Positions 8,261 through 20,792 of a stretch of DNA of 29,627 nt are shown piece after piece. Below the pieces are notes generated by a model. It did no database searches. It saw nothing but the letters and a program-made list of their open reading frames with translations, and was not told where the DNA came from. The position numbers and the translations under genes were made by a program. The DNA is from Corallococcus exercitus (GTDB lineage Bacteria > Myxococcota > Myxococcia > Myxococcales > Myxococcaceae), in the NCBI RefSeq assembly GCF_003611585.1, contig NZ_RAVW01000068.1, positions 1-29,627 of the forward strand, in the 5' to 3' direction. Within the stretch, counting starts at the first letter, position 1; every line of letters starts with the position of its first letter.

Positions 8261-9018
8261 GCACGCGAAAAAAGCTGACACTCATCACCTACGCCCCTGC
8301 CCTCGTGGGCAAAGACAGCCGCACGCTCAATGTCATCCATGGAATGGAGAATGCGTTCCCTGGCTTACGACTGGAGTGGGAAGTTGGCGAAAGTGGGCGC
8401 CCCATCGCGTTGCCACAGCGTGACACCTGGCTCGTGGAAAGAATCGAGGACGGTGGATTCCCGGTCGTGTGCAACGGGGACGAACGTTACCCCGTGACGG
8501 TCTGGGCAATTGAAAGCTCAGGGCTCTCCAGTCCAGGCGGACAGCCCCAATTTGAAGTGCACGCAAAACTGCCACTGGACGGGCCCGTGGTCGCGGCAGC
8601 GGCGGCTCTGCTTGAGGCCGTGGCGGAGGGGGCACGGTCGTTCTGGGGTCATGCGTCGCCGTATGGCTACGGCTCAGAGGTCGCGCAGCAGTTCCGCCGC
8701 TCGCCAGACGACCCCGAGCGTTCACCCCGTGGGCTTCCAATGCTCAACCTTCCGGAGAAGAGCCCCAGGGCGGAGACTCCCTCTTTCCTCGGGTGGCTGA
8801 ACTATTGGTCCGCGGCTGCCGCGGAGGTCATCGGGTTCCCGGATCCTGCTCGCGATGCCGAGTTGCTCACGCGGGCACGTCGCACTCCGTCAGGCGGGTG
8901 GATCGTGCAGCTCACGGATGCACCGCTTGATTACGACAACCCCACTCACCTGGAAGCGCTCAAGCGGGCCTATGAGCGCTTCCCGGTGATTGGCGGGCGC
9001 ACAGCGCCTCGACTGTGA
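8257..9018 (+). CDS. Putative cognate immunity protein (translationally coupled to upstream toxin gene)
   Basis: ATGA start/stop overlap with the upstream gene (ATG 8257-8259 / TGA 8258-8260). Low GC in the 5' half. No signal peptide. No known catalytic motif. Confidence 0.6.
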   Translation: MSTRKKLTLITYAPALVGKDSRTLNVIHGMENAFPGLRLEWEVGESGRPIALPQRDTWLVERIEDGGFPVVCNGDERYPVTVWAIESSGLSSPGGQPQFEVHAKLPLDGPVVAAAAALLEAVAEGARSFWGHASPYGYGSEVAQQFRRSPDDPERSPRGLPMLNLPEKSPRAETPSFLGWLNYWSAAAAEVIGFPDPARDAELLTRARRTPSGGWIVQLTDAPLDYDNPTHLEALKRAYERFPVIGGRTAPRL

Positions 9019-14328: not shown

Positions 14329-14766
14329 ATGAGCCCGCTCATCCCCTACTTCATCCTTTCGCCCGTGGTCGCGGGCGGCCTTGCCTGGTGGACGCTCACC
14401 CGCCTTGGAAAGAAGCGGAACGCCCGCGCGAAGGGTTCGCTCGACGCGGTGGTGACGCGGCTGCGAGGGCAGAAGGCCACCGGCACGGCGGACCTCTTCG
14501 TCCAGGACGTGTCCTGGTCCGGAGAGACGGAGCTGTCGCCGCAGAACTGCCGCATCCGCGTGGTGATGGGCGGCCGGGACGCCGCGAGCATTCCTCCGCG
14601 CTTCGAGGTGGAGAGCGCACCGGGAGCCCCCCGCCCGCCCGCGGACGTGCTCGCGGCGCTGCGGGTGCTGGATGCGCAGGCGACGGAGGCCCTGAAGTCC
14701 GGCGGCTGGAGCTGGCAGCGGCCCACGGTGTCCTTCGAGCCAGTGAAGGCACCTCCCTCGGCATGA
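14329..14766 (+). CDS. Hypothetical protein with one N-terminal TM helix
   Basis: LIPYFILSPVVAGGLAWWTLTRL hydrophobic segment. High-GC codon usage. No recognisable domains. Confidence 0.55.
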   Translation: MSPLIPYFILSPVVAGGLAWWTLTRLGKKRNARAKGSLDAVVTRLRGQKATGTADLFVQDVSWSGETELSPQNCRIRVVMGGRDAASIPPRFEVESAPGAPRPPADVLAALRVLDAQATEALKSGGWSWQRPTVSFEPVKAPPSA

Positions 14767-14962
14767 AGGGGAGGGGCTCACTAGCGCCAAGCGACGGAAT
14801 ACTCGGCGCTTGCGGCAAACTCCGCGCCGAACTCTGCGCGACTAAAATACGACTACTCTCAAGACAACTCAGATCCGGGCTATATCCACCGGGCCTCTGA
14901 ATTCATCTCACGAGAAAGTCTCCCCCGATAAGAGCAACTCACATCGGCAGTTCCCCGAAACC

Positions 14963-15814
14963 ATGACAATAGCGGCCGCCTGGATCCGCCAGACGAAAAC
15001 TGTTCAAGAGCTTTTCATCGCATCAGATAGCCGACTTTCTGGAGGCATGCGTTGGGATCAGTGCCCCAAAATATTGGTACTTCCTAGATCAGACTGCGCG
15101 ATCTGCTTTGCTGGAGATACCGGCTACACATATCCACTAATGCTACAGCTGGCGAACGCAATCGATGCCTTTGAAAAATCCCGTACGCGCGCCGACGACA
15201 TTCGAAAATTGCGTGGCCATGTCGTCAAAACATTTAACGCACTATACGATGCAATTAAGGGCCAAGCTCCCGGCGAAGATGCGGCGGGGACTGAGTTTCT
15301 ATTAGCAGGCTACTCGTGGGTTTCAAAAGAGTTCAAGATCTGGAAGATCGCGTACAACAAGACCGAGAAGAAATTCGTCCACATTACTCCCAGGGCTCTA
15401 CTTGGCACACAGCTTCGAGTTGTTGAGTTTGCTGGCGACTGGGCGCCCATCGCTCGCAACAGACTAAGAACCCTGATGAAAACCCGTCTTGGTCCTCCAC
15501 CCCTGAAACGATGGAGAGGCCTTGACATGGAACCGCTAGAAGTCATTCGAGACCTGCTTCGTAGCAGCGGCCCTGATGACACCATTGGCGGCGCACCACA
15601 AGTCGTAAAGATTTTCCAACATCTCAATGCTCGCCCATACATAATCCCATGGATACATGAGGGGAAAACAATTCATACCCTTTTTGGACGGCACCTACTC
15701 CCATACGAAACTACTCGCCTTGGCATTCTAGATGTGGACACGATGCAGACATCTAGGCATGGCCTAAAAAATCCAACCACGCAAGAAAGGCATATTTTCT
15801 CCTATTCCTTTTAA
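14963..15814 (+). CDS. Proteasome-beta/HslV-like N-terminal-nucleophile (Ntn) hydrolase-fold protein with ~100-aa C-terminal extension (islet gene)
   Basis: MTIAAAW (Thr directly after Met, as for a Thr1 nucleophile). [13 protein letters not shown] and [35 protein letters not shown] resemble HslV TTIVSVRR..VVIAGDGQATLGN and [36 protein letters not shown] resembles the proteasome LLVGGYD motif. Lies in a visibly AT-richer region. Confidence 0.55.
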   Translation: [283 protein letters not shown]

Positions 15815-15844
15815 TCGCAACAAGAACGACACGATTATCGGAGA

Positions 15845-15870
15845 GGGAAACATGAGGGTTTCCCTTATCT
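15845..15870 (+). terminator. Hairpin downstream of the Ntn-like gene
   Basis: GGGAAAC-atgag-GGTTTCCC followed by TTATCT. Confidence 0.4.
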
Positions 15871-15946
15871 AGCAAGTCAATCAGCGTGCGTTCGCCCGGT
15901 CGCTGCGTGCGACGACACTGGCGCACGGGCAGAGAGGAAGGCCACC

Positions 15947-16460
15947 ATGACGCGCAAGGAGGCCATCCACAAAGAGCAAGTGCGAGCGTTCTTGACGGAG
16001 GCTTTCGAGGACGACCTGTACGTCAACCGAATCCTCTTCCTCTCACACACGCCCATGGGCGGCACAGACCACCAGTCTGTCCGTAGCGGTCATTGGCAAG
16101 GCCATGGCGTGGGCACGGGACGAGGACGACACCTCCAAGCATGCCGTGAAGCAAGTGGACCACCTGCTGTCCAATGGGAGCTTCGAGGTCTGGAAGCTGT
16201 TCGATGCCTGTATGCTTCGTGCTGGCCGAGCGCACTGAGTCGTGACAATGACAGGGAACCGCATCTTGATCACGCCTACGGCAGCAAGGACACTGCCCCC
16301 GAAGCATCTCGTCCACGCACGGGCGGAGCGCCACCACCACCTACCGGAGTCGGTTCCTACCCAGGAAAGGCGAAGGTCTGTGCGCGGTTTGAGCATCAGG
16401 CTCCCCGAAGTTGAGTGCGTTGCCTGCCGCCCGCACAGCGGAACTTCTGTGACGGGCTGA
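15947..16460 (+). pseudogene. Decayed gene remnant spread over three reading frames (at least two frameshifts)
   Basis: Frame a: MTRKEAIHKEQVRAFLTEAFEDDLYVNRILFLSHTPMGG. Frame b: VIGKAMAWARDEDDTSKHAVKQVDHLLSNGSFEVWKLFDACMLRAGRAH. Frame c: MTGNRILITPTAARTLPPKHLVHARAE.... Each piece looks protein-like, but they are not colinear in one frame. Confidence 0.35.
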
Positions 16461-16503
16461 GGAATGCAGCGCCACCATGCGCCGCATGTCCTCGTCCTTC
16501 CTC
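16417..16503 (+). repeat. Direct repeat copy 1 (87 nt): diverged duplicate of the 5'UTR + first 10 codons (MRRMSS[S/T]FL) of the downstream alanine-racemase-fold gene
   Basis: Gap-free alignment with 17514-17600, 69/87 identical (by-eye count). Core CATGCGCCGCATGTCCTCG[T/A]CCTTCCTC is 29/30 identical. Confidence 0.7.
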
Positions 16504-16622
16504 AAGTCGCCCCCCTCACATGGGGAGAGGTCTTGCCCCCATCCAATGTGGGCGACTTTAATGCAGCAGCAAAGGAACGGGCGAACTGCTCTCGCAACTG
16601 ACCAGCGCGCCTCCAGCTCTCT

Positions 16623-17420
16623 ATGTCCGACCTTACCAAGTTTGAGATGCGTCAATTCGAGCGGCTGTTCGGGATGAGTTCCGGCTACGTGCTAAATTTT
16701 TCAAACCGAACATTCGAAGACTTCATTGCCGATAGCGCAAAAAGAATTATCTCCGAACCAAAGTATTACAGACACTCCGGTTCTAAAGCCAATCGACTGC
16801 GGGCCTTCTGGGAAGTAGAACCTAATCATGTCGTCGGAAAGCTTTCAGCCGACTTACTGGACTACACTCGCATCGAAAAGCTCATTGAGAACAAGGACCT
16901 ATTCGACTCCTGCCAAAAGATCGCCCAGCGCCTTCTCCATGATGCGCCGGCAATCAACATCGACGCCTTGACGCCAGTATCAACGGAAAGAGAGTTCGAA
17001 GCACTTGTGAATGCTGTCAAAATCTCAATCGAAAACAACGAACCGGAGTCGGCACTGGATCGGCTTCACACATTTTTCATCAAGTACTTACGACTCGTTT
17101 GCAGCGGCCGAAAAATCTCTATCGATAGAGAGAAGCCGCTCCACAGCCTGATGGGCGAGTACATCAAGGCACTAAAGCAGCAAAACGCGATCGAATCAGA
17201 AATGACCGAACGCATCCTCAAGTCAACCATTAGCCACCTGGACGCATTCAGCCGCGTCCGCAACGAACAAAGCCTCGCCCATGACAATAGAATGCTAAAT
17301 TACGAAGAAAGCCTACTCATCTTCAATCAAGTAACGAGCACCGTCAGGTTCATCCGTGCCATAGAAGATCGCTTGGCAAAGCAGGCTGCTCCAGTGGCCG
17401 ACGATGACATCCCCTTCTGA
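16623..17420 (+). CDS. AbiJ-like abortive-infection protein: N-terminal AbiJ-NTD-like domain + C-terminal HEPN (Abi_C) domain
   Basis: Visibly the lowest GC in the window. C-terminal SRVRNEQSLAHD fits the HEPN Rx4-6H motif (R-NEQSLA-H). Overall size and layout match the AbiJ / Abi_C family. Bracketed by the 87-nt direct repeats. Confidence 0.55.
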   Translation: MSDLTKFEMRQFERLFGMSSGYVLNFSNRTFEDFIADSAKRIISEPKYYRHSGSKANRLRAFWEVEPNHVVGKLSADLLDYTRIEKLIENKDLFDSCQKIAQRLLHDAPAINIDALTPVSTEREFEALVNAVKISIENNEPESALDRLHTFFIKYLRLVCSGRKISIDREKPLHSLMGEYIKALKQQNAIESEMTERILKSTISHLDAFSRVRNEQSLAHDNRMLNYEESLLIFNQVTSTVRFIRAIEDRLAKQAAPVADDDIPF

Positions 17421-17513
17421 CTCCAGTTCTACAGATCCGAACTCAGGCAGAACGATGGAGCCGCAGCCTGCTTGCCCCTGAGTTTCTGGCGATGTAACTG
17501 GCAGGGCTTGATG

Positions 17514-17600
17514 GTTGGTTGCAGCGTTGCCTGCCGCACGTCCGGCGGGATTCGGGTGACGGGTCGGGAAACGCGGTGCCAGCATGCGCCGCATGTCCTC
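17514..17600 (+). repeat. Direct repeat copy 2 (native 5' end of the alanine-racemase-fold gene)
   Basis: See copy 1. Contains the functional ATG at 17584. Confidence 0.7.
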
Positions 17601-18678
17601 GACCTTCCTCGATACGCTCGACACGCCCGCCGCCATCGTGGACCTGGCCCGCGTGGAGCGGAACCTCCAGCGCGTCGCGACCTACGCTCGCGAGCACGGC
17701 CTGCGCTGGCGTCCCCATACGAAGACGCACAAGACGGCGGAGCTGGGCGCGATGCAGGTCGCGGCGGGAGCCACCGGCGTCACGGTGGCCACCGTCCTGG
17801 AAGCCGAGGTCATGGCTTCGGTGTCCGACGACGTGCTGCTCGCGTACCCGCCGGTGGGCGAGCGCAAGCTGGCGCGGCTGATGGCCCTGCCTTCGCGCGT
17901 GCGGCTCACCGTGGCGCTCGACTCCCATGACGTGCTGGAGGGCCTGGCGCGCGCGGCCCGGGACGCGGGGCGCACCGTGGGCGTGCTCGTGGAGGTGGAC
18001 CTGGGCATGCGCCGCGTCGGGCTGCGCACGCCGGAGGAGACCGTGGCCCTGGCACGCGCGGCGGCCTCCACGCCTGGCGTGGCGTTTCGCGGGGTGACGT
18101 TCTACGCGGGCCACATCCGCATCCCCCAGGCGGAGCTGCCTTCCGCGATGGGCGCCCAGTCGGCAGCACTGGCGACGTTCGTGGGCGCATTGAGCGACGC
18201 GGGCCTGCCGCCGGAGGTGGTCAGCGGCGGCTCCACGCCGACCCTCTGGCAATCCCATACCGTGAAGGGCCTCACGGAGATCCGCCCGGGACTCAATGCG
18301 CTGAACGACCGCAACGCGGCGGTCATCGGCGCCTGTGATTGGACGGAGTGCGCCTATTCCGTGCTGGCCACCGTGGTGAGTACGGCCGTGCCCGGCCAGG
18401 TGGTCATCGACGCGGGGGCCAAGGCGCTGGTGAAGGAGGAAGGGCTGGCGCCGGGCTATGGCGTCCTGCTGGACCGGCCAGAGGTCGTGGTGAAGAACCT
18501 GTCGGAGGAGCACGGCCTGCTGGACGTGTCCGGCACGACGTGGCGCCCCCGCATCGGCGAGCGGGTGCGCGTGGTGCCCAACCATGTCTGTGTTTCTGTC
18601 CCCCAGCATCCCCGGCTGTACGTCGTGCGCGGCGACACGCACGTGGCCACGTGGGAGGTCGCGGCACGCGGCTGGTGA
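17584..18678 (+). CDS. PLP-dependent alanine racemase-fold (fold type III) enzyme, D-serine dehydratase-like / D-threonine aldolase family
   Basis: LRWRPHTKTHKTAELG (PHxKxHK PLP-lysine motif of the DSD1/D-TA family). Ala_racemase_N-like N-terminus. C-terminal beta-domain. Confidence 0.8.
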   Translation: MRRMSSTFLDTLDTPAAIVDLARVERNLQRVATYAREHGLRWRPHTKTHKTAELGAMQVAAGATGVTVATVLEAEVMASVSDDVLLAYPPVGERKLARLMALPSRVRLTVALDSHDVLEGLARAARDAGRTVGVLVEVDLGMRRVGLRTPEETVALARAAASTPGVAFRGVTFYAGHIRIPQAELPSAMGAQSAALATFVGALSDAGLPPEVVSGGSTPTLWQSHTVKGLTEIRPGLNALNDRNAAVIGACDWTECAYSVLATVVSTAVPGQVVIDAGAKALVKEEGLAPGYGVLLDRPEVVVKNLSEEHGLLDVSGTTWRPRIGERVRVVPNHVCVSVPQHPRLYVVRGDTHVATWEVAARGW

Positions 18679-18688
18679 ACCCCGCGCC

Positions 18689-19684
18689 TCAGACGATGCG
18701 CTGCAGCTCCTGCGTCAGCATCTCCTCCAGGTGCCGGATGTTCCGGTAGACGAGGCACCGGTAGCTGGACACATCGAAGCGCAGCTCCTTCACGTCGCGC
18801 ACCAGCATCAGGGTGGGCTTGCCGCGTCCCCAGGCGTAACCCACCTCCAGGTAGACATTGGGGTTCGCCAATGACAGGTCCGCGATGACGACCTTCGCGG
18901 TGTCGATGCGGTCCCGGATGCGCTGGATGATGGGACCGTCGAAGATGGCCTGATCCACGCGCTCGCACAGGAGCCCGGCCGACTTCACCGGATTCAGGAT
19001 GCCGTAGTGGTAGGTGTCCTCCAGCTCCGGCGCGAAGGGCATCGCCACGAAGGCGTGGGGCTTCTCGTTGGAGTTCGCGCCCGCGGAAGCCATGGGCGGC
19101 GCCTGGACGAAGCGGGACGTCCGCCGGACGCGGAAGCCCGTGGCCCCCATCAGCGGCTCCACGCCCGGCGTGAGCCCCAGCCCCAGCGCGATGGCCTTGC
19201 GCAGCCGCTCCACGCGCTTCGGGTTCAGCTCCACCACCGTGATGCGCTCCAGGTTGCGCGGGCCGCTGCCGCGCTGGAACGCGTCCACGAAGCCGCCCAC
19301 CAGGGCCAGCACGGCCTCGTCCTCATCCAGCCCGTAGTTGGGGCCGTGCACCGTGCACGCGAGGTGACGCACCTCGTGCCGGGGCTCCAGGAGCTGGAGC
19401 GCGCGCACGGAGAACTGGCGGATCTCGTGGTAGCCGAACTGGCGCAGGCGCACCGTGCCCAGGAAGAGCACCAGCGGAGCGCCCAGGCTCCTGCGCGTGT
19501 CGATGAAGCGGTGGTCCCCGGGGAGCAGGTCGAAGGCGTCCATGGCCACGCCCGCCGCCTCCAGCCGGCGCGACACCGCGCCGTCCGCCCCGTGGAAGCC
19601 CTGCGCGTACTTCAGCAGCACGGCATCCGCGGCCGTCTCCCCCACGTCCCCCAGGTCCACCACGACGTCCAGCGTGTCTCCCAT
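18689..19684 (-). CDS. Two-domain protein: N-terminal Macro-like (ADP-ribose-binding) domain + C-terminal SLOG / nucleoside 2-deoxyribosyltransferase-like Rossmannoid domain (ThsA-like architecture)
   Basis: Macro: VVVDLGDVGETAADAVLLKYAQGFHGADGAVSRRLEAAG vs the consensus VxGDITxxxxDAIVNAANxxLxxGGGVxxAIxxAAG. C-terminal: FVAMPF...KVVIADLSLANPNVYLEVGYAWGRGKPTLML, the NDT/SLOG-type pattern (AD...E.GYA..GKP). Confidence 0.7.
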   Translation of the reverse strand: MGDTLDVVVDLGDVGETAADAVLLKYAQGFHGADGAVSRRLEAAGVAMDAFDLLPGDHRFIDTRRSLGAPLVLFLGTVRLRQFGYHEIRQFSVRALQLLEPRHEVRHLACTVHGPNYGLDEDEAVLALVGGFVDAFQRGSGPRNLERITVVELNPKRVERLRKAIALGLGLTPGVEPLMGATGFRVRRTSRFVQAPPMASAGANSNEKPHAFVAMPFAPELEDTYHYGILNPVKSAGLLCERVDQAIFDGPIIQRIRDRIDTAKVVIADLSLANPNVYLEVGYAWGRGKPTLMLVRDVKELRFDVSSYRCLVYRNIRHLEEMLTQELQRIV

Positions 19685-19898
19685 GGGCCCGGGACTGTAG
19701 GGCGTCCCGGTCCAACCACGCCATCCCCCGCGCCCGTCGCCGTGCGTCAGGAGGGCGAAACACAGACGTTGCCAAAGCAGGTCAATCCCTGTTCAATGAC
19801 GCCTTGCGCCTGCCTGGCTGTCTTTCAGGCCACCACCGCGCTGCCTGTGAAGCACTTCACAGTTTCCGCCCGGGCGTCCCGGGTAGCATTTGGGCACC

Positions 19899-20792
19899 AT
19901 GTCCCTGTTCGCGCGCCTGCAGGCCCTGCTGTCCGCCCATCCGTCCGCCCCGGTCTCCTCCGGCGGGCAGACGTCCGCGACCTCCGCCACGGCCCCGGCG
20001 GCAGGGGCCCCGGCGGACGTGGAAGGGGCTCCCGCGCCGCCGCCCGTCTGCACGCGCTACCTGCCCGCGGGCCAGGTGGTGGTGCGCGAGGGCGACCCGG
20101 GCCATTCGATGTTCGTCGTGCTGGAGGGCCGCGTCGCGGTGCTGCGCGGCGGCGACAACGGCGCCAACACGGAGGTCGGCCGCCTGGGGGCCGGCGAGTT
20201 CTTCGGCGAGCTGGCGCTGCTCACCGGCACGCAGCGCACCGCCACCATCGTGACGGTGGAGGACGCCGTGCTGCTGGAGCTCACCCAGGCCGGCGTCCGG
20301 GAGCTGGGCAAGGACTACGGCGTCAAGGGCGAGCAGATGCAGGTCACCGCCCGGGAACGCCTGCTCGCGGACGCGCTGCGCAGCAACCCGCTCATCGCCG
20401 CCCTGCCCCCGGAGGTGCAGCACGAGCTGGGGGACGCCTTCGTCCCCTGCACCGTCCCCGCCGGAGAGACGCTGCTCACCCGGGGCCAGCCGGGCGACGC
20501 GCTCTACGTCCTCATCCGGGGCCAGTGCGAGGTCTTCCACACGCACGGCGACGGCCGCCAGTCCCCCTACCCTACGCTGGAGGAAGGCGCCCTGTTCGGG
20601 GAGATCTCCCTCTTGCGCAGCCGGCTGGCCACCGCCACCGTGCGCACCGTGACTCCCTGCACGCTCCTCAAGCTGGAGCGCGACGTGTTCAAGAAGGCCT
20701 TCCTGGGCCAGCCCGACCTGCGCGGCGCCCTGGTGCGCCTGGGCCTGGAGCGGCTCAAGCACACGATGGAAGTCATGGGCGAGCCGAAGTAG
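19899..20792 (+). CDS. Tandem cyclic-nucleotide-binding (CAP-family cNMP) domain protein, no output domain
   Basis: Domain 1: GEFFGELALLTGTQRTATIVTVEDAVLLEL. Domain 2: GALFGEISLLRSRLATATVRTVTPCTLLKL. ATG at 19899 (the ORF track used an upstream TTG). Confidence 0.85.
   Translation: MSLFARLQALLSAHPSAPVSSGGQTSATSATAPAAGAPADVEGAPAPPPVCTRYLPAGQVVVREGDPGHSMFVVLEGRVAVLRGGDNGANTEVGRLGAGEFFGELALLTGTQRTATIVTVEDAVLLELTQAGVRELGKDYGVKGEQMQVTARERLLADALRSNPLIAALPPEVQHELGDAFVPCTVPAGETLLTRGQPGDALYVLIRGQCEVFHTHGDGRQSPYPTLEEGALFGEISLLRSRLATATVRTVTPCTLLKLERDVFKKAFLGQPDLRGALVRLGLERLKHTMEVMGEPK

Follow-up and report, generated by a model that had tools for sequence, protein, structure and literature searches.

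A macro-fold protein with a nucleoside 2-deoxyribosyltransferase-like C-terminal domain in Corallococcus exercitus, a candidate sensor-effector of a widespread uncharacterised family

The contig NZ_RAVW01000068.1 of Corallococcus exercitus (RefSeq assembly GCF_003611585.1) was analysed from position 1 to 29,627, a stretch that is referred to here as the window. It carries two divergently oriented genes, gene A and gene B, which an initial annotation made from the sequence alone had described as a possible nucleotide-signal sensing pair. Gene A encodes an N-terminal macro-fold domain followed by a C-terminal domain of the nucleoside 2-deoxyribosyltransferase (NDT)/DrHyd superfamily, and gene B encodes cyclic nucleotide (cNMP)-binding domains. 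Both open reading frames (ORFs) lie where they had been placed, and both motif strings quoted for gene A are found in it; the underlying observation is confirmed and its interpretation is partly supported. Gene A belongs to an uncharacterised, widespread family that is linked to NAD+- and nucleotide-centered conflict systems. The features of the locus are as follows (pLDDT, predicted local distance difference test).

18689..19684, minus strand: gene A, macro-fold plus NDT/DrHyd-like two-domain protein of 331 aa; ORF, orthologue of Myxococcus xanthus MXAN_3123
19121..19684, minus strand: N-terminal macro-fold domain of gene A, aa 1-188
19070..19120, minus strand: flexible interdomain linker of gene A, aa 189-205; poorly conserved, pLDDT <50 at aa 194-205
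18692..19069, minus strand: C-terminal NDT/DrHyd-superfamily (TIR-related) domain of gene A, aa 206-331
18845..18847, minus strand: codon of Glu280 (predicted catalytic nucleophile), located in the helix that follows strand 3; pairs with the Glu of MilB HVEIGWA in the alignment
19685..19898, no strand: divergent intergenic region between genes A and B, about 200 bp, as read from the sequence
19899..20792, plus strand: gene B, 297 aa, two cNMP-binding domains only (PF00027 twice, E 4e-47)
17584..18678, plus strand: D-serine dehydratase-like enzyme (Ala_racemase_N and D-ser_dehydrat by Pfam), convergent with gene A, synteny marker

Homologues of gene A number 1834, and a length of about 331 aa is kept across Myxococcaceae and Archangiaceae. 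The copy of C. exercitus SDU142 is 99% identical, and the exact protein of the window has no entry in the contig index that was searched. An AlphaFold2 model built with 33 homologues as input (pLDDT 81) shows two domains with a disordered linker (aa 194-205) between them; it is a soluble fold in which no segment is modelled as a transmembrane helix. Searches of gene A with Pfam, NCBIfam, and PADLOC returned only a weak match to PF05014 and a match to PDLC00733, both in the C-terminal domain, and no macro, SLOG, ThsA or ThsB model. The earlier description of gene A as a macro-fold protein with a Rossmannoid domain of the N-glycosidase type is borne out by the two-domain fold and by the relatives of the C-terminal domain.

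The C-terminal domain contains the motifs HAFVAMPF, LCERVD, VVIADLS, and NPNVYLEVGYAWG. Its match to PF05014 reaches 24.3 bits (E 3.6e-5) and stays below the cut-off of 28.8, which is passed by the relatives P0123 (40.3 bits) and P0226 (29.5 bits). Used either as a single sequence or as a 20-sequence profile, the domain detects no PDB sequences other than MilB, a CMP N-glycosidase, and BlsM, and the stretch YLE(280)VGYAWGRGKP of gene A aligns with the MilB motif HVEIGWASGMGKP. Within the TIR-DrHyd-SLOG clade, active members cleave or transfer N-glycosidic bonds, whereas inactive members are sensors, and the defining active site sits after strand 3 in a loop and helix (PMC9503650). In gene A, strand 3 (265-269), the next loop, and the helix 275-286 bear N274, N276, and E280. 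The likeness to the N-glycosidases of the NDT superfamily (the CMP hydrolases MilB and BlsM, nucleoside 2-deoxyribosyltransferases, and DNPH1/Rcl) is weak (profile E 0.006); in contrast to these enzymes, gene A has an additional macro domain and lies outside a nucleoside-antibiotic cluster.

A Glu equivalent to Glu280 is present in all 120 of 120 close homologues and in 101 of 103 distant stand-alone homologues, which amounts to 221/223 stand-alone proteins. In 13 of 43 homologues fused to further domains, its place is taken by Q, K, G, L, M, V or T, in TIR-fused proteins and proteins fused to effector-associated domains (EADs) alike (Fisher p = 2e-6 for loss in fused versus stand-alone forms). 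Such retention is expected if the stand-alone protein needs its C-terminal domain for catalysis: in such a protein, the catalytic part would be the NDT-like domain, and the Glu would be kept for this reason. The initial annotation had assigned the role of sensor to the C-terminal domain. This polarity is probably reversed, with the C-terminal domain having the appearance of a catalytic effector and the macro domain that of a ligand binder.

The nearest relative of the C-terminal domain in a known defence system is found in an effector of CBASS, the antiphage signaling system that is based on cyclic oligonucleotides. The PADLOC model PDLC00733, labelled 'Effector, TIR', matches aa 245-321 of gene A (E 2e-13), covering only positions 286-362 of its 388 profile positions. 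A tblastn match on a Klebsiella plasmid led to WP_004181948, a protein of 388 aa that matches PDLC00733 end to end and whose gene shares a type III CBASS operon with CD-NTase, HORMA, and TRIP13 on a Klebsiella pneumoniae plasmid. Its N-terminus is Cap17-like_N (PF18178), a TPALS SLOG domain, which is predicted to bind a cyclic oligonucleotide (Rousset et al.). A hhalign comparison aligned the C-terminal profile of gene A to aa 292-363 of WP_004181948 with 98.5% probability (E 2e-15) and with the Glu conserved (VVIADLTGSRPNCFLELGYALGRG in gene A and VVIADLSLANPNVYLEVGYAWGRG in WP_004181948). Since this part is the C-terminal domain of WP_004181948, the NDT-like subfamily fills the effector slot of a known sensor-effector protein. 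Like gene A, the CBASS protein thus combines an N-terminal domain of ligand-binding type with a homologous C-terminal domain that keeps the Glu. It differs in that its N-terminal domain is a TPALS domain of the SLOG family and not a macro fold, and in that it belongs to a CD-NTase operon on a conjugative plasmid, whereas gene A is an orphan core chromosomal gene.

The label PDLC00733 'TIR' thus covers a TPALS (Cap17-like_N) sensor that precedes an NDT-like domain, as at positions 60208-61374 of the Klebsiella plasmid NZ_CP099749.1. In Cap17, the C-terminal position is occupied by a PNP effector with ATP-nucleosidase activity; judged by sequence, the PDLC00733 effector is a Cap17 analogue with an NDT-like domain in place of this PNP domain. 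No report of an activity of the PDLC00733 effector was found in the searchable literature.

The same comparison bears on the nature of the C-terminal domain of gene A, which had been described as SLOG/NDT-like. The NDT part of this description is upheld by the matches to MilB and BlsM. WP_004181948 contains both a SLOG and an NDT-like domain and therefore serves as an internal control: the profile of gene A gave no alignment to its SLOG part and matched the non-SLOG part only, and for this reason the SLOG label is rejected. PF18178 has no match in gene A, and comparison with SLOG-family models and structures (LOG, TPALS, and the SLOG domain of ThsA) yielded no qualifying match either.

An exhaustive search of representatives with gene A returned 394 clusters below E 1e-30. 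The family comprises at least 394 clusters at 50% identity and at least 534 loci in as many species genomes, one genome per species having been scanned. It is found mostly in Myxococcota and is patchy elsewhere, with scattered copies in Binatia, Chloroflexota, Bacteroidota, Acidobacteriota, Longimicrobium, Nostocales, Gallionellales, Alphaproteobacteria, and a Methanosarcina metagenome-assembled genome (MAG). A pattern scan for viral relatives of gene A found none, and tblastn searches of plasmids and phages gave matches to the C-terminal domain only and no full-length relative.

Among the best 150 representatives, 44 proteins (about 30% of the distant relatives) are longer than the dyad of macro-fold and NDT-like domains. 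The additional domains in these 44 proteins include TIR_2 (22/44), TIR, TIR of the CAP12/PycTIR type, ThsB_TIR, EAD7, EAD1, and EAD11, as well as bDLD1, CHAT, DUF4062, HD, and an astacin-like domain. The Methanosarcina MAG has a fusion to a caspase domain, and fusions to TIR are seen in Ktedonobacteraceae. Adaptor and effector domains of this kind have been described for NTP-dependent conflict systems of multicellular bacteria, and DRHyd and Macro are among the domains that process NAD+ and ADP-ribose (ADPR) in these systems (Kaur et al. 2020 and 2021; PMC7159879, PMC8195603). The fusions to TIR, caspase/CHAT, effector-associated, and Death-like domains therefore tie the dyad to NAD+/ADPR conflict systems. 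Together with the fusions to ThsB-like TIR and the homology of the C-terminal domain to a CBASS effector, they give substance, for the wider family, to the link with nucleotide signals that had been proposed for the locus. The fused forms share the dyad with gene A at 37-49% identity. Gene A itself begins directly with the macro domain, and features of EAD, Death-like or effector fusions are confined to distant relatives; compared with the fused forms it has neither an EAD, TIR or peptidase extension nor a STAND, vWA or MoxR partner, and it keeps the catalytic Glu. No STAND NTPase was found near one EAD7-fused and one TIR-fused relative, both of which lie on short contigs. Literature searches retrieved no text describing a macro plus NDT-like dyad and no characterization of MXAN_3123, of macro-deoxyribosyltransferase fusions or of TPALS.

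Four public records of the family stand out by their labels. A locus titled 'Comamonas sp. KCTC 72670' (BNCN01000010.1) is of the Myxococcus type, with a gene A of 69% identity and the same synteny with a dehydratase and an S9 peptidase gene, and three MAGs named 'uncultured Enterobacterales' contain gene A homologues in loci with 68-71% GC. All four are probably mislabelled or contaminated.

The N-terminal domain has the three-layer alpha/beta/alpha architecture of the macro fold. Residues conserved in the family are G12-D13, K25, A27-Q28, G32, D34, G76-T77, T111, H113-G114, and G118-L119-D120-E121, and in the AlphaFold2 model each is placed at the C-terminal end of a strand, the canonical location of the macro cleft. 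Loop 2, H113-G-x-x-Y-G118, resembles the diphosphate loop S-x-G-x-[FY]-G of macro domains. In a hhalign comparison with Af1521 (sequence of 1hjz), only strand 1 was aligned, with G12-D13 of gene A on G19-D20 of Af1521. The macro domain Asp that is equivalent to D20 of Af1521 contacts adenine. The position of the conserved residues at the cleft end, the likeness of loop 2, and a replacement of the canonical loop 1 suggest that the domain has a conserved pocket for an ADPR-like ligand, with a specificity that would be altered at the distal ribose.

The N-terminal domains of M17 aminopeptidases (leucine aminopeptidases, LAP) have a macro fold as well, and they are not known to bind ADPR. A primary assignment of the gene A domain to this type was considered and rejected, canonical macro domains scoring slightly higher and the GD and G-x-Y-G motifs fitting macro domains better.

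Taken together, the analysis demonstrates the two folds, a C-terminal domain homologous both to N-glycosidases and to an effector domain of CBASS, and recurrent fusions of immune type in the family. The interpretation that is preferred here is that gene A is a sensor-effector in which a macro sensor is combined with an NDT-like effector (probability about 0.5, a figure that includes the near-certain anatomy of the protein and no coupling to gene B). According to the proposed mechanism, ADPR or one of its derivatives would be bound in the canonical cleft of the macro domain, with the adenine-contacting Asp and the diphosphate loop retained and the loop for the distal ribose remodelled. [quoted passage not shown] The two domains diverge at different rates, with mean identities of 53% for the N-terminal versus 78% for the C-terminal domain among myxobacterial homologues and 38% versus 51% among distant homologues. 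Faster divergence of the N-terminal domain fits a sensor beside a catalytic domain, being the usual pattern for such pairs.

Several observations weigh against the sensor-effector interpretation. Pfam detects no macro domain in gene A at E <=1 and none in the 44 long relatives at E <=0.001; the profile of the N-terminal domain finds nothing significant among PDB sequences, where its best match is the N-terminal domain of an M17 aminopeptidase (E 0.46). LAP N-domains score almost as high as macro domains, and the macro assignment is made by fold alone. In loop 1, the canonical NAAN...GGG is replaced by K25-x-A-Q...G32-x-D34, and ADPR binding is therefore only putative. Some EAD-fused relatives have neither the Glu nor any other enzyme domain, which means that the dyad can work without catalysis by the Glu. 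With regard to genomic context, gene A is single, syntenic, and core-like in the Myxococcota loci examined and has metabolic neighbours, which is atypical for a defence gene. A signal-generating partner was not found near gene A among the window ORFs of at least 200 aa, which were those covered by the domain scans. A conserved partner was searched for by all-against-all clustering of the neighbouring ORFs of 44 distant and 20 non-myxobacterial loci, and no gene accompanied gene A across phyla in the clustered loci, where only lineage-local synteny was seen. An upstream amidase and ThrE, each present at three loci, were considered as partners and judged coincidental.

This genomic context agrees with the main rival, a housekeeping hydrolase, in which gene A would be a constitutive enzyme of nucleotide or ADP-ribose-metabolite salvage with no signaling or immune role in myxobacteria. 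One example would be a MilB/DNPH1-type nucleotide N-hydrolase with a macro domain that serves to recruit or process metabolites derived from ADPR, for instance O-acetyl-ADPR, ADPR-1''-phosphate or ADP-ribosylated nucleotides. Gene A is a vertically inherited chromosomal gene of Myxococcaceae. Its adjacency to the D-serine dehydratase gene, which lies 10 bp away in the window, is kept in Corallococcus, Myxococcus, Pyxidicoccus, and Citreicoccus, and this persistent adjacency is simple synteny, shared across Myxococcaceae together with the S9 peptidase gene. In M. xanthus DK1622, MXAN_3123 lies between a Smoa_sbd gene and the D-serine dehydratase gene, and in Archangium violaceum and a distant Myxococcales MAG the neighbours of gene A are unrelated. 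Vertical inheritance, a single syntenic copy with the behaviour of a core gene, and the lack of a partner gene in the clustered loci and of full-length relatives on the plasmids and phages searched would all be expected of such an enzyme. The best solved sequence relatives of the C-terminal domain are metabolic CMP N-glycosidases, and the conserved polar residues of the macro cleft (H113, D120, E121, K25, and D34) are numerous, beyond the needs of simple binding. A salvage role accounts less well for the repeated fusions to TIR, caspase/CHAT, EAD, and Death-like domains, for the use of the C-terminal subfamily in a CBASS effector, for the patchy distribution across phyla outside Myxococcota, and for the dispensability of the catalytic Glu in fused relatives. 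On balance, it is considered somewhat unlikely.

The initial annotation had equated a macro domain fused to SLOG with the layout of ThsA in Thoeris defence. This comparison does not hold, as ThsA is either a SIR2-SLOG protein or a transmembrane (TM)-macro protein (PMC11204291), and gene A has no PADLOC match to ThsA, no SIR2 domain, and no adjacent ThsB (TIR) gene among the scanned window ORFs of at least 200 aa. With the type I ThsA (SIR2-SLOG), only the general logic of a nucleotide-binding domain combined with an NAD+-consuming domain is common; neither domain itself is shared, the C-terminal domain of gene A being of the NDT/DrHyd type and SIR2 being absent. In the TM-macro ThsA of type II Thoeris, the macro domain is a pure, non-catalytic sensor of ADPR-type ligands, and this ThsA is paired with ThsB proteins of a subfamily whose active site is NDT-like (PMC11204291). 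In this system (TM-macro ThsA with ThsB, including ThsB2), a macro sensor thus occurs together with a TIR-related domain that is NDT-like in its active site, and the gene A family is likewise linked to TIR through its TIR-fused relatives.

The co-occurrence of macro domains with NDT-like TIR domains in type II Thoeris (PMC11204291) also suits a different division of labour, in which the NDT-like domain makes an ADPR-derived molecule by hydrolysis or base exchange and the macro domain binds or degrades it, so that the protein would produce, buffer or quench a TIR-type signal and would not kill. The frequent fusion of the dyad to TIR (22/44 long relatives), the core-gene behaviour, which would fit a homeostatic role, and the conserved acidic and His residues of the macro cleft, which could be catalytic, are compatible with a signal maker or attenuator. 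However, gene A matches neither a ThsB nor a ThsA model, the closest defence relative of its C-terminal domain holds the position of an effector and not of a generator, and no downstream effector gene lies nearby among the scanned ORFs of the window. A role of this kind therefore seems distinctly unlikely.

Gene B consists, as had been described, of two cNMP-binding domains and nothing else. Its ORF spans 19890-20792 on the plus strand; ATG 19899 is the likely start, since the product from this codon is 100% identical to a C. exercitus protein. The initial annotation had combined gene B with gene A, taken as a ThsA-like Macro-SLOG protein, into one second-messenger module with a shared promoter of about 200 bp. 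The size of the divergent gap is as described, while a promoter scan of 19685..19898 gave no match of the sigma-70 type. In favour of such a module, a divergent arrangement with a gap of about 200 bp is seen in the window and in five Corallococcus species, and both genes have PADLOC matches to effectors labelled 'TIR', namely PycTIR and PDLC00730-732 for the cNMP domains of gene B and PDLC00733 for the C-terminal domain of gene A.

The pairing was surveyed with tblastn at 80 loci, counting gene B orthologues whose identity was at least 85% and whose distance to gene A was no more than 1 kb. They were present at 10/80 loci, all from Corallococcus; five are directly adjacent, and the other five have an inserted gene of about 0.9 kb of the dienelactone-hydrolase type between A and B. 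C. llansteffanensis shows the interrupted arrangement. Two further Corallococcus loci end at a contig edge and are uninformative. In this census and the neighbourhoods examined, the adjacency is absent from Myxococcus, Pyxidicoccus, Citreicoccus, Archangium, Hyalangium, Vitiosangium, and all other phyla. Orthologues of gene B with about 65% identity occur unlinked to gene A in Pyxidicoccus and Myxococcus; in Pyxidicoccus sp. MSG2, the orthologue lies among unrelated neighbours with no gene A nearby. As the adjacency is limited to one genus, interrupted in half of its species, and accompanied by unlinked copies in Myxococcus and Pyxidicoccus, the proposed signaling pair is not supported, and gene B is with near-certainty a chance neighbour of gene A and not a functional partner. 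The initial annotation had itself named a pairing that is not conserved in other genomes as grounds for refutation, and on these grounds the pair is refuted. In a genome that contains many cNMP-binding genes, a divergent neighbour of this type is no evidence of a signaling module.

The PADLOC matches do not rescue the module. Those of gene B stem from its generic cNMP domain, PDLC00733 is a CBASS TPALS effector and does not belong to Pycsar, and the C-terminal domain of gene A is not SLOG. The domain scans found no TIR, cyclase or STAND NTPase among the window ORFs of at least 200 aa; the absence of a TIR gene beside gene A, noted at the outset, agrees with this, and no TIR gene was found next to gene A orthologues in the neighbourhoods examined. 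A coupled A-B module is consequently regarded as highly improbable. With Pycsar, the likeness is confined to the match of the gene B domains to the cNMP part of PycTIR models; the domains are distributed over two separate genes that are not co-inherited, no PycC cyclase is present among the scanned ORFs, and the C-terminal domain of gene A matches a CBASS and not a Pycsar model. A Pycsar-like split effector, formed by the cNMP domains of gene B and the 'TIR' domain of gene A, was rejected on the nature of PDLC00733 and on the lack of conservation of the pair.

If the sensor-effector interpretation of gene A is correct, the protein would represent a new combination, a macro domain gating an NDT-type glycosidase, within the branch of bacterial immunity that depletes NAD+ or nucleotides, and the uncharacterised C-terminal domain of the TPALS CBASS effector would be linked to a testable chemistry. 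A multicellular bacterium would also have fixed an immune-type effector module as one of its core genes, which is rarely seen. A bolder extension sees the dyad as an unrecognised class of ADPR-signal-gated N-glycosidases, Thoeris-like sensor-effectors on a single chain, whose TIR-fused relatives would be complete one-polypeptide systems with signal maker, sensor, and effector and whose stand-alone form would be a domesticated core gene in Myxococcaceae, responding in trans to many TIR proteins, for example in phage defence or in programmed cell death during fruiting-body formation. This extension is speculative and unlikely. The orthologue MXAN_3123 makes the family genetically tractable in M. 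xanthus.

The window also contains further genes. On the minus strand, 4839-7118 encodes a 759-aa bacterial homologue of Major Vault Protein from eukaryotes, made up of Vault, Vault_2, Vault_3, and Vault_4 repeats and an MVP_shoulder domain, and 1947-3569 encodes a protein with LysM and a VgrG3-like C-terminal (chitosanase/GH46-like) domain, possibly a secreted cell-wall hydrolase. Two overlapping genes on the plus strand (6749-9018) encode a protein of 503 aa with DUF6310 at its end and a DUF5953 protein of 253 aa, a layout that resembles a toxin/immunity pair.

A 2.8-kb islet of low GC content (14742-17547; 51-57% GC compared with about 70% in the flanks) with two genes separates the S9 peptidase gene from the D-serine dehydratase gene. 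It is a strain-specific insertion in place of a 480-bp stretch of the closely related C. exercitus SDU142 locus. One of its genes (16623-17420, plus strand) encodes a protein of 265 aa that has Abi_C (PF14355, E 1e-11) as its C-terminal domain and was not found beside the proteasome-like gene in two other genomes checked. Full-length homologues with 51-53% identity, annotated as 'abortive infection family protein', are located on mobilizable Pseudomonas and Aeromonas plasmids. In five Corallococcus loci, 1.2-1.9 kb of extra DNA separates the gene A orthologue from the dehydratase gene. Considered jointly, this extra DNA, the islet (14.7-17.5 kb), and the hydrolase gene that separates A from B in five species suggest that the gene A region is an insertion hot-spot.

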